Positions 8,185-15,188 of a stretch of 64,000 nt of DNA are shown one piece after another. The stretch comes from Chrysomallon squamiferum (taxonomy: Eukaryota > Animalia > Mollusca): assembly GCA_012295275.1 (NCBI GenBank), contig CM022665.1, forward strand, positions 32,922,001-32,986,000, in the 5' to 3' direction. Under the pieces are notes generated by a model that made no database searches, had not been told where the DNA came from, and saw nothing but the letters and a program-made list of their open reading frames with translations. Each line of letters opens with the position of its first letter. Within the stretch, counting starts at the first letter, position 1. A program made the translations under genes and the position numbers.

Positions 8185-11100
8185 CTATATTATGAGATAT
8201 TTGACAGCGACAGCATAAATGATGAGAATAAGAATGGATGTGTTATACAGGCCACTCGCTCCACAAGGACACCACTCATTGGACCAGCAAAGACACCACG
8301 GGGTGTTTTTGTCCAATATTACAATTCTCTGTTCCAATGCAGTTATCATGGGCGACCGATTTCTGAAATAGTCCGCTAGTATGTCGACTATCTGAATGTC
8401 TGATAAAAATAGAGAAAATAAAATATAGCTATATATGTTTGCGTTTGTTTATATATATATGTATGTATGTATGAATGTATGTCTGTGGGTATGTCTGTCT
8501 CCATCTCTGTATAATTTGTATGTGTATATGTGTCTGTTTATCTGTCTATCTATCTATATCTATATATGTTAGTAAATTTTAAGATTGTTATAGATATAAT
8601 TACGTTAACACTGTGAAGTCATATTATAAACATCAATTCGATAGATGTTTTTTTTTCATCAAGTTTGGAGTTACTTAAAAGCATATTTATCATTGCTTAA
8701 TATTGTTTCTTAAGGCATCTTTCTTTTTAATCTATTTGAATGATAAAATAATTAAACGTACCGAATTCTGTCTTACTGCTCTTATTGTCTCTGAGTACGG
8801 TGTAACCGTCTCCGCCATTGGCTAAGAATGATGACGTCACAACAGGGTATATTTCATCATCGTCTACTGGTACATATTCAGGGACTGCGCATTTATGACA
8901 TTTAACAAGCAGTTTTGAAACGCGAACCCCTTTTGGCTTGTGCATGGCGTACGTCACCTTAACTCCTGTCAATAAACAAAGGACAATTTCATTTATTCAC
9001 CTGTTATAAATTGCAAACTAATAATGTAGATAAAGATAGTATTAACGGCATTTAAGATAAAATGAATACATACATACATACACACACACATACATATATA
9101 CATCCATAAATCCATGAATCAATACATCCATACATATACATATACATACATACATACATACGTAGATGTCGTACAGACACATATATAGAAATTTGGTTTG
9201 GCAGAGTAAATGCATTTACCCGATACTTGAAGAAATCCACCAAAATATCCCCGGTCTCTGGACTCGCTATAATCGAAACTAGAATGATTGAACACTTCTT
9301 TCAAAAATTTTCCCTTCAGTTTCAAAAATACCATTGCGCTTCTGTATGGAAAAGCCTCTATGATATTCTGCATAGTTACTTCGCCTATAGTTGAAATTAA
9401 TATAAACAAACAACAATAATAATAAAACCATAACATTTGGAGTAGTATGTTATTGGCAGCACCACAACAGAAGCAGCAGTAGTAAATAGACAGATAAATA
9501 AATAAAGAGTAAAAACAAACAAAAAATCTAATTCAAAAGAATACTTCTTAAAAATAAATAAATAATAAATAAATAAATAACGATAGAAAAGAAGAAAGAA
9601 AAAACTAACAATGAATTGAAGCAGGGATATGTTTATACTGTTATATACACATACTGTGGCAAATAAGTTTAGCAATTTCGTACAAGACATGAAATACAGA
9701 CAACCTGATTGGATGTTGTATTTATTTATACACATTATTTCATTGATAGAGCATTTCTGAATGTAGCCAGCAGTAAGTAACACTGTTACAGAATCAACGT
9801 CGTTACTTTAATGTCAACTGATGAAACGAATGGGTACATCTACCAAAATGGAGAGATATACTCAATGATGTGTGTGTGCACCAGCGGCATTGATGACAGC
9901 ATTACATCTAATGAGAGGTTTAATCTCGCGTTGTCGAGTCGTGATATGTTACTGTCATGAACACGAAAGTACTGAGCGACGTCGTATACGCGTTGGCCGG
10001 TGTTAAGCCGTCCCATTGCTTCGTGACTTTCCGTTAAACCTGGACGACAACCAGTTATATCGATAAAATCTTCCTTTTGTTTTTGGATAATGTTGGTTCA
10101 GTGCATCATTTGCACGTGCAGTACACATAGCGGGTACGATATGACAAATGGTGTTCTTTTCATTACCCAAAGCGAAAGGGCATATACAACTAACACATTA
10201 CCTAGTTTTATCACTTTATTTTAATTTATTTGGAAGCAACAGTCATTTACAAAAACTTGCTTAACTTTTTTGGTTAAGTATATATATATATATTTATATA
10301 ACATAACATTTCTTTTCACGAGAAGGGACAAAAATCTCATACTTTTATATTCATATAGCACACAAATTTACCTTTGGTATTTATTGTGTGTGTGTGTATG
10401 TATATATATATATATACTGTAAATAAATAAATAAACAACAAGAACAAGAAAAAAAAAAGAAACAAAAATAAGAATAAAGAAAAACAACAACCCCCAACCC
10501 CACCAAAAAACTACAAAAAGAAAAATATCAGAGCAAGAACAAGAACAAGGGACAAAAACCTCACACTTTATATTCACATAGCACACAAATTTACACTTGC
10601 AAAAAAAAAAAAGTAACAACAAAACCAAAGAGTAAGAACAAGAACAAAAATAAAACAAACCTCGGCTAATGGACTGTCGAAAAGCACCTCCGTTAACCAT
10701 GGTGATGGCGACATAATTCCAGTTGGTTGAATTTAGACTCATCAGATTTTTCCAAAGCAAGGCATCAGCAACAAAATTACCTGTGCAAAATTACCTTTCG
10801 TTATTTTTGTTCTTTACGTAAGTTTTCAAAACTTATACAATAACTATGAAAATAATAAAAATAATAAAAAAATAAAAAAAAAAAAAAAAAATAATAATAA
10901 TGAAACAACATATTAATAATAACAGTGGTAGCAGTAGTAGTAATAGTAGCAATGGAAGTTGTAGTAGTAGTAGTGGTAGTAGTAGTAGTAGTAGTAGTAG
11001 TAGAAGTAGTAGTAGTAATAATAATAATAATAAAAAGAAGAAGAAGAGAGAAAACAAAATAAATAAAAGTATACAGTTAAAGATAGACAAAAAGAGACAC

Positions 11101-14100: not shown

Positions 14101-15188
14101 TATTTCTCAATAGTTTGCCCACTCATTCATTGTATAGTCCATGATGTTACTGAAGATAATAATAATAATAACAAGAGAGAAAAACCTGTTTTGTAAGTTG
14201 TTAAAATAAATATCATACAGCGAAACCATTCATGCAAGCAATTTCTTTGACACAATTATTATTTTGGGGAGTTCAGACTATAGATATATGTAACCAGATT
14301 ATAAAATTCAAAATATATATTTAAAATATATGTTTAAAAACAATTTATATTTTCAGATTAGTTTTTTTCTGTTTGCTGTGTATGAAAGTATAATTATGTT
14401 AAGTATGCTGACCTACATTACTGAATTTCAATTTTGCACACTAAATATATCGTATCAGCAGCGTAGTTAGTTTCTAAAAAAGGTTTTGTTAACTATTGAT
14501 GATCTTGTGTTAAGGTTCTTGTAATAATTAAATATATATATATATATATATATATATATCTATATATATCTATATATATATATATATATATATATATATA
14601 TATATATATATATATATATATATATATATAGAGAGAGAGAGAGAGAGAGAGAGAGAGAGAGAGAGAGAGAGAGAGAGAAAAGTAAGTGAAATTTTTTCAG
14701 TAAGGATATTTAATTTAATAATTTACCATTTTCTGAGACGTATTTCATTAATGCGAAAAAACAAAACAAATTATAAAATTATAAAAATTTAAGGAATAAA
14801 TTAATTAAAAGGATTGAAAATAAATTGTGTAACAAGATCACATCACGATATTAGAAAAACTCACCATAGCATCATAACCCAGCTTGTTCATAAAGTCTAC
14901 CACCAAGGACCCATTATATTTATAATACCACGGCGTTCCCGTGTACTGGTTTCCAGCATCCAGCAGCAAAAGATGTTTGTTTTCACTACGTTTTTCATTG
15001 ATTACGGTTTTCATTCGAGCAAATCCCCCAAAACATTCTTCATTTTGCGTACATTGGTTTCCCATGGCGTCAGTTTCATCAAAGTGTGAATTCACGTCGT
15101 TTGTGTGCAAGATTGTCAGATCGAACCCAGCAGTACTTTCAATCAGAAGAAATGCCACCAAAGAGACAGAGATACACACCCGAACCAT
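8185..15188 (-). CDS. NT5E: Ecto-5'-nucleotidase (CD73)-like protein, copy A, 600 aa, signal peptide plus GPI tail; predicted catalytically impaired
   Basis: Nine in-phase exons: 14865-15188, 12788-13043, 12034-12222, 11518-11715, 11135-11266 (GC donor), 10661-10780, 9220-9384, 8762-8965, 8185-8399 (1803 nt). Family motifs: LTILHTNDVNSHF, LLLDAGNQYTGT, ALGSHEFD, VLGNSGY, VIGAHSS, VVQSYPNGKYIGYL, CKLRECNIGN, NGGAFRQSI, GGFLQVSG, SFLANGGDGY. Hydrophobic C-terminus ILILIIYAVAVKYLII*. Confidence 0.95.
9654..10278 (-). mobile_element. Internally deleted Tc1-like DNA transposon in NT5E-A intron 6
   Basis: The minus strand encodes a Tc1 HTH-like peptide (SHEAMGRLNTGQRVYDVAQYFRVHDSNISRL) next to a Tc1 C-terminus-like peptide (RCNAVINAAGAHTHH*). 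Degenerate inverted ends are flanked by TA. Confidence 0.65.
13283..13372 (-). mobile_element. Tc1/mariner-superfamily transposase C-terminal fragment in NT5E-A intron 1
   Basis: The minus strand reads IATCDYILWDYLKAEVYEDRPRTIDELA, matching the (SPD)LxPCDFFLWGYLKxxVYxxxPxTIxEL motif. Confidence 0.65.
14531..14678. repeat. (TA)n(GA)n compound microsatellite
   Basis: Seen directly. Other SSR tracts include (GT)n(GA)n at 7091-7196, (AAT)n at 12230-12345, (GA)n at 28330-28411, (TC)n at 50621-50684 and (GA)n at 61534-61625. Confidence 0.95.

Follow-up and report, generated by a model that had tools for sequence, protein, structure and literature searches.

The 64,000-nucleotide stretch of Chrysomallon squamiferum DNA analyzed here (the window, AT-rich with approximately 30% GC) was found to carry two neighboring genes of the CD73 (NT5E) 5'-nucleotidase family. 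Copy A, the main subject of this analysis, has a degenerate metal site; copy B is of the canonical type. No third nucleotidase copy was found in the window, in which tblastn matched copies A and B alone. Residues are numbered according to the 574-amino-acid mammalian CD73 (P0210), whose residues at those numbers agree with the ones listed in an earlier sequence-only reading of this DNA. The metal ligands are taken by us to be D36, H38, D85, N117, H220 and H243, an assignment that was absent from the open texts searched. The features of the two genes are given below.

8185 to 15188, minus strand: copy A gene, CD73-family paralogue with a degenerate metal site, 600 amino acids in nine exons (15188-14865, 13043-12788, 12222-12034, 11715-11518, 11266-11135, 10780-10661, 9384-9220, 8965-8762 and 8399-8185).
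14865 to 15188, minus strand: copy A exon 1, with a signal-type hydrophobic N-terminus, D36 (15098-15096), H38N (codon AAT, 15092-15090), the first Cys pair and D85N (AAC, 14951-14949).
12788 to 13043, minus strand: copy A exon 2, with N117S (AGC, 13034-13032) and the intact His118/Asp121 dyad.
12034 to 12222, minus strand: copy A exon 3, with H220N (AAC, 12127-12125), G242A, retained H243 (12058-12056) and N245S (AGC, 12052-12050).
11133 to 11266, minus strand: copy A exon 5 (ending at 11135) and its GC donor, with R354K (AAA, 11156-11154) and the second Cys pair.
8762 to 10780, minus strand: copy A exons 6 to 8, with the C-terminal nucleoside pocket (codons N390 10694-10692, R395 10679-10677, F417Y 9346-9344, F500 8828-8826 and D506 8810-8808) and the third Cys pair.
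8185 to 8399, minus strand: copy A exon 9, with a four-Cys stalk (codons 565-575, 8295-8263), small residues and a hydrophobic tail of glycosylphosphatidylinositol (GPI) type.
18141 to 32014, minus strand: copy B gene, canonical CD73-type 5'-nucleotidase, 589 amino acids in nine exons (32014-31676, 22979-22766, 22318-22130, 21414-21217, 20614-20483, 20218-20099, 19744-19583, 18864-18661 and 18352-18141).

The spliced model of copy A runs from an ATG at 15188 to a stop ending at 8185 and contains 600 codons without an internal stop. The exon borders and phases were the same in copies A and B, and exon 2 was 14 codons longer in copy A. Seven of the eight copy A introns are of the GT-AG type; intron 5 requires a GC donor after 11135 (GC-AG), at a place where copy B has GT. 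The earlier description of nine clean exons with no stop or frameshift therefore held for the open frame but not for this donor. The three conserved Cys pairs claimed for copy A were all seen in the alignment to mammalian CD73. Both termini are hydrophobic and, by their sequence shape, resemble a signal peptide and a GPI tail, respectively, and four extra Cys residues (565, 567, 573 and 575) lie just before the tail. Identity between the two proteins was 38% overall and 34% in the C-domain. Copy A exons 1 and 3 match CD73 structures, and copy A aligns end to end with copy B and with a Gigantopelta aegis protein (P0003) in which Pfam identified both the Metallophos N-domain and the 5_nucleotid_C domain.

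The number of metal ligands kept was found to be six of six in copy B, three of six in P0003 and two of six in copy A. Copy B was unchanged at all 11 metal, catalytic and phosphate sites, in agreement with the canonical tandem copy that had been proposed. The loss of four ligands in copy A, together with N245S and R354K, was confirmed from the spliced model; the codon positions given earlier were correct, and each of the four changed ligand codons is indeed one base away from a codon for the canonical residue. Copy A retains D36, H118, D121, H243 and R395, and the catalytic His118/Asp121 dyad is intact in P0003 as well. At the phosphate contacts N245, R354 and R395, copy A has Ser, Lys and Arg, respectively, and P0003 retains all three. 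The six ligands were 100% conserved in 153 canonical reference rows, which had been picked for having them, and these rows were used to define 45 near-invariant columns outside the metal/phosphate set. Copy A was changed at six of the 11 metal/phosphate sites compared to three of those 45 columns (Fisher p = 0.0009), its further changes at near-invariant columns being G242A, L207F and E436N. In P0003, the corresponding changes were three of 11 and one of 45 (p = 0.02). Judged by its metal ligands and phosphate contacts, copy A would not belong among the active CD73-type ecto-5'-nucleotidases.

At all six changed codons and at the GC donor, contigs of sequencing run X1, which may be the source sample, carried the letters of the window throughout. 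This agreement guards against a consensus error, but it would not reveal a private allele. Outside the repeat in intron 6, run X1 and the window differed at 11 positions, ten of them non-coding and one synonymous; exons 7 and 8 of copy A were largely uncovered by this run. No exon-exon joint of copy A was present among the joints listed from three RNA runs, which were too shallow to judge, and no RNA record holding copy A was listed. For copy B, one contig of RNA run X2 joined exons 7 and 8, with the predicted 718-base intron removed; this spliced contig had a depth of 2.1 and was present in one of the three RNA runs.

The best match of copy A exon 1 among 242 was P0003 (XP_041352239.1), which over its full length was 53% identical to copy A (604 columns) and 45% identical to copy B. 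Copy A and P0003 were sisters with 100% support in the Shimodaira-Hasegawa-like approximate likelihood ratio test in both quick trees (47 and 46 rows; the first, from a quick search, omitted rows P0165, P0148, P0205, P0192 and P0226). Copies A and B were not sister genes in either tree, and copy B paired with another Gigantopelta protein, P0130, and grouped with abalone genes. P0003 carries H38Q, D85S and H243Q, and N117, H220, N245 and R354 are retained. Conservation of the four substitutions in an orthologue, suggested earlier as a check, was therefore found in part: H38 and D85 are lost in both proteins, though with different replacements, but N117 and H220 are kept in P0003, and the remaining losses are private to one lineage. 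P0003 has arrived at a similarly degenerate metal site through different replacements, a new observation that strengthens the pseudoenzyme case.

The four-Cys stalk before the tail was present in copy A and P0003 only, among 398 fetched proteins longer than 450 amino acids, and the other snail copies checked had one or two Cys in this region. These cysteines may form inter-chain disulfides. The copy A stalk at 8263-8295 is also Trp-rich. A search with the C-terminal part of P0003 (19 matches) found no further members of the lineage. The two sequenced peltospirid snails are reported to have split 71-184 million years ago (PMC7895826), a figure taken here as a rough guide. P0003 has been auto-annotated as 'snake venom 5'-nucleotidase-like' and is thus named as an enzyme; no remark on the loss of its metal site was found in the literature searched.

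Copy A has very probably lost catalysis, as the sequence-only reading had claimed, judging from the crippled orthologue and from mutagenesis in the superfamily. In yeast Dbr1, changes of His13, His231 or His233 to Asn or Gln, and of Asp40 to Asn, all fail to restore activity (PMC5113202). By shared motifs, these residues appear to match H38, H243, N245 and D85, and copy A and P0003 each carry several changes of the Dbr1 type. A structure model of P0003 had a mean predicted local distance difference test score (pLDDT) of 90.2, was uncertain at the stalk alone and had human CD73 as its best match (E 2.5e-72). By way of this model, copy A is predicted to combine a kept fold with the loss of essential catalytic residues, as is characteristic of a pseudoenzyme.

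In 1000 runs of neutral mutation of the copy A coding sequence at each level, 124, 13, 0 and 0 runs remained free of stops at 95, 90, 80 and 70% protein identity, respectively. Compared to these runs, an open frame at 53% identity between the orthologues suggests selection over most of the branch. Moreover, 42 of the 45 near-invariant columns outside the metal/phosphate set are kept in copy A, and no stops, frameshifts, broken splice sites or evenly spread decay of the kind expected in a pseudogene were found. The claim that copy A is not a decaying pseudogene stood, because P0003 is crippled too, the frame is open in both proteins and the structural columns are conserved. These findings support copy A as a candidate pseudoenzyme kept by selection and, at the protein level, are indicative of purifying selection across two species.

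All four His replacements in copy A and P0003 were Asn or Gln, compared to 23-37% per site expected from a single-base change (p 0.003-0.02, or 0.01-0.05 if there were only three events; the comparison is post hoc). Such amide replacements would fit a cleft that still needs packing but no longer binds metal. The proposal that Asn preserves the structure was borne out insofar as all His replacements were amides, but Asn itself is not conserved, as P0003 has Gln, Ser and His at these positions. The simplest reading would be that an early D85N change knocked out the bridging ligand Asp85 before the species split, Asn being one step from Ser, and that after this loss the other ligands eroded separately in each lineage.

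In the open form of human CD73, adenosine monophosphate (AMP) is held by F417, F500, N390, D506, R354 and R395 of the C-domain, apart from the metals (PMC8677862). In this order, the residues were found to be Tyr, Phe, Asn, Asp, Lys and Arg in copy A and Tyr, Phe, Asn, Asp, Arg and Arg in P0003, so that the nucleoside pocket (N390, F417, F500 and D506) reads Asn, Tyr, Phe and Asp in both orthologues. Tyr417 was found in five of 112 mostly canonical relatives. The kept pocket weakly favors a nucleotide binder, and the chances are about even that copy A is a GPI-anchored dead protein binding extracellular AMP, adenosine diphosphate (ADP) or adenosine. The shape of the tail suggests GPI anchoring, and CD73 structures suggest that the pocket would bind nucleotides. 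Held at the cell surface, copy A could then buffer, shield, hold or present AMP, ADP or adenosine without hydrolysis.

Several observations weigh against this nucleotide-binding reading. The pocket was changed at 0 or 1 of five positions compared to seven of 11 in the metal/phosphate set, and p was 0.28 if F417Y is counted as a change and 0.03 if it is not. Between the orthologues, conservation of the C-domain did not exceed that of the N-domain (54% and 59% identity, respectively, compared to 71% and 70% in the copy B pair), and R354K would weaken one phosphate contact in copy A. The lineage was found in two species only, within the searches made, which gives it little depth, and the path length was 1.14 for the copy A pair compared to 0.62 for the copy B pair, an approximately twofold greater divergence. 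The main loose end is that the survival of D36, H118 and D121 in both orthologues would not be predicted by pure neutrality of the active site.

Copy A might instead be a dead subunit that modulates the activity, trafficking or stability of copy B by pairing with it via their C-terminal domains, with stalk disulfides as a possible lock; a heterodimer regulator of this kind was among the roles suggested in the earlier reading. The residues lining the dimer cavity of human CD73 are named in PMC5805337, and they are partly kept in copies A and B (D366, G454, E543, R545 and an aromatic residue at 484). There are also precedents: Drn1, a pseudo-metallophosphoesterase, is reported to bind Dbr1 and enhance its activity (PMC4105757), and CD73S, an inactive splice form, to form a complex with CD73 and degrade it (PMC4263446). 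However, the interface residues are retained in nearly all tabulated family members and nothing specific to copy A with copy B was seen; the C-domains of the two copies are only 34% identical, copy B groups with abalone genes, and the syntenic Gigantopelta contig lists one nucleotidase model. The one link between the two genes, their adjacency on the same strand, would be expected from tandem duplication anyway. A dimerizing subunit is therefore improbable.

A similarly small probability is given to copy A being a dead surface glycoprotein for adhesion, matrix or microbe contact, in which the pocket persists as part of the fold. The lineage is fast-evolving, the four-Cys stalk is lineage-specific, and N-glycosylation sequons number 12 in copy A and nine in P0003 compared to nine in copy B and five in P0130. 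Human CD73 has also been described as a matrix receptor (PMC5837971), and the crippled paralogues P0382, P0308 and P0346 have lost much of the pocket too. In contrast, both orthologues show identity or conservative replacement at each of the six AMP-contact positions, alongside an eroded metal site, and nothing was found to connect the locus with symbiosis, since the Gigantopelta nucleotidase enriched in the gland lies elsewhere in that genome.

It is very doubtful that copy A is an enzyme with altered chemistry, that is, a single-metal or metal-free hydrolase using Asp36, His118 and Asp121 on another substrate. D36, H118, D121 and R395 are retained in both orthologues, with H243 in addition in copy A and N117 and H220 in P0003, and every metal-ligand replacement is a small polar residue. 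However, the leftover ligands differ (D36 and H243 in copy A; D36, N117 and H220 in P0003), so that a common new metal site is unlikely, the bridging Asp is lost in both orthologues, and single equivalent changes kill Dbr1 (PMC5113202). Recent silencing and decay, or private assembly errors, would fit the approximately twofold longer branch of copy A (0.77 compared to 0.37 for its orthologue) and, for a very recent loss, the 124 stop-free neutral runs at 95% identity, but is extremely improbable given the two ligands also lost in P0003, the intact frame, eight splice junctions, Cys pairs and hydrophobic ends, the 42 of 45 other near-invariant columns that are kept, and the same codons in run X1.

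The nucleotide-binding pseudoenzyme proposed here was compared to known systems. Copy A resembles CD73/NT5E (PF00149 and PF02872; PDB 4H2I, 4H1Y and 7QGM) in the two-domain fold, as judged from P0003, the three Cys pairs, the His118/Asp121 dyad, the C-domain nucleoside pocket and the signal-type and GPI-type ends, but differs in the replacement of four of six ligands, N245 and R354 (three of six ligands in P0003) and in the four-Cys stalk. P0003 itself is like copy A in being its sister and in the stalk, the loss of H38 and D85 and F417Y; it differs in its replacements and in keeping N117, H220, N245 and R354. Drn1 (Ygr093w) is likewise described as a dead paralogue of the calcineurin-like superfamily under selection beside an active relative, but it is nuclear, acts on RNA lariats, has CwfJ domains and has been demonstrated to bind its active relative (PMC4105757), whereas copy A is known from sequence. 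CD73S is an inactive CD73 form able to regulate the active enzyme; unlike copy A, a separate old gene with the pocket kept and the metal site lost, it arises by exon skipping, is without F417, is retained in the endoplasmic reticulum and does not dimerize (PMC4263446).

Loss of ligands was also found elsewhere in the family, in a count from which 78 incomplete domains (60, 15 and 3) had been dropped. The closest matches of P0003 comprised 116 complete domains (15 incomplete dropped), every one of them with all six ligands, and 13 of 142 complete domains of the cluster representatives (60 incomplete dropped) were without two or more ligands. Nine of these 13 belong to separate proteins, from insects and from one tick, one brittle star, one sea cucumber and one acorn worm; the remaining four came from two long multi-domain proteins, P0291 and P0330. 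Invertebrate proteins annotated as enzymes with two to five ligands missing were P0271, P0324, P0346, P0382, P0352, P0289, P0343, P0302, P0004 and P0308. The degenerate paralogues include those of Drosophila ficusphila (XP_043064137.1), Aedes albopictus (XP_029725487), Cinara cedri (VVC26429.1) and Leguminivora (XP_047991995.1) among insects, and of Ornithodoros (XP_064489233.1), Amphiura (XP_072044178.1), Apostichopus (PIK40016.1) and Ptychodera (XP_070568606.1) outside them. Like copy A, they have lost at least two of six ligands; unlike copy A, the losses are at other positions and to other residues, and retention of the pocket varies. The degenerate state requires at least five changes on the tree, and no other degenerate paralogue joins the copy A clade (in a quick tree with long branches). 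As judged from these alignments, ligand loss appears to be rare per gene but recurrent in the family across invertebrates. The nucleotidase domains of P0291 and P0330 both carry H38E and H243G, a pattern that possibly represents a rewired metal site.

The literature searched, which was largely open-access, yielded no account of an animal CD73 paralogue lacking the metals, and the matches listed from the vent-snail papers held no main-text mention of nucleotidases. CD73 is treated as a single, always catalytic source of extracellular adenosine, and databases label such paralogues as active nucleotidases. The probably dead copy A lineage in two species and at least four further cases of separate origin among arthropods, echinoderms and hemichordates make non-catalytic CD73-like proteins likely in animal purinergic systems, and counts of 5'-nucleotidase/apyrase genes in invertebrate genomes likely overstate the number of enzymes. 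It is a broader and unlikely proposal that invertebrates repeatedly converted surplus CD73 genes into GPI-anchored receptors or co-receptors for nucleotides, devoid of metal, that sense or present extracellular AMP or adenosine. If true, this would be an overlooked non-catalytic arm of purinergic signaling, of which copy A and P0003 would be the clearest example, with a stepwise loss of the metal site that can be read. The A/B pair offers a direct test of the CD73 scaffold without catalysis (binding, dimer control, adhesion), which is usually studied by engineered mutants. Chrysomallon is not a laboratory animal, but the Drosophila and Aedes degenerate paralogues are found in tractable animals.

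In copy B, Arg393 (exon 6, 20099-20218) lies beside the pocket, at a position occupied by Gly (82), Ala (17), Ser (12) or Val (1) in 112 relatives. P0130 has Gly there, and run X1 had no coverage of this site. G393R may be real or an assembly error, and copy B may be less ordinary than was assumed. G505N, beside D506, is common to copy B (exon 8, 18661-18864) and its Gigantopelta orthologue, in a column that is 93% Gly.

The other features of the window are as follows.

3383 to 3751 and 3985 to 4470, plus strand: two exon-like open stretches downstream of copy A, with no Pfam match.
9700 to 10270: high-copy repeat in copy A intron 6, with a summed depth of more than 2000 in run X1.
24950 to 26130: long tandem array in the first intron of copy B, with a unit of some tens of bases as judged by eye.
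26937 to 27404, minus strand: remnant in the first intron of copy B that weakly matches GIY-YIG (E 0.002, not reaching the curated cut-off) and is likely a fragment of a Penelope-type retroelement.
37809 to 41439, minus strand: exons of pyruvate dehydrogenase E1 alpha (PDHA1).
43776 to 44054, minus strand: fragment that weakly matches a MULE transposase (E 0.03).
53749 to 57958, minus strand: lambda-crystallin (CRYL1)-type gene.
63078 to 63317, minus strand: last exon of a likely second, diverged CRYL1 copy (29% identical).

A role of this locus in symbiosis was considered and rejected. The gland-enriched nucleotidase of Gigantopelta, ctg83-6.0-1 (log2 fold change 2.0), sits among MAP3K4, NOTUM and UBE2J1, and the nucleotidase of the syntenic locus ctg200 (CRYL1, nucleotidase and PDHA1) was not in the list of genes enriched in the symbiont gland. 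According to PMC7895826, one Gigantopelta contig groups the PDHA1, CRYL1 and nucleotidase genes together, with a single nucleotidase model, and the syntenic locus carries several CRYL1 copies, two of which are enriched in the symbiont gland.

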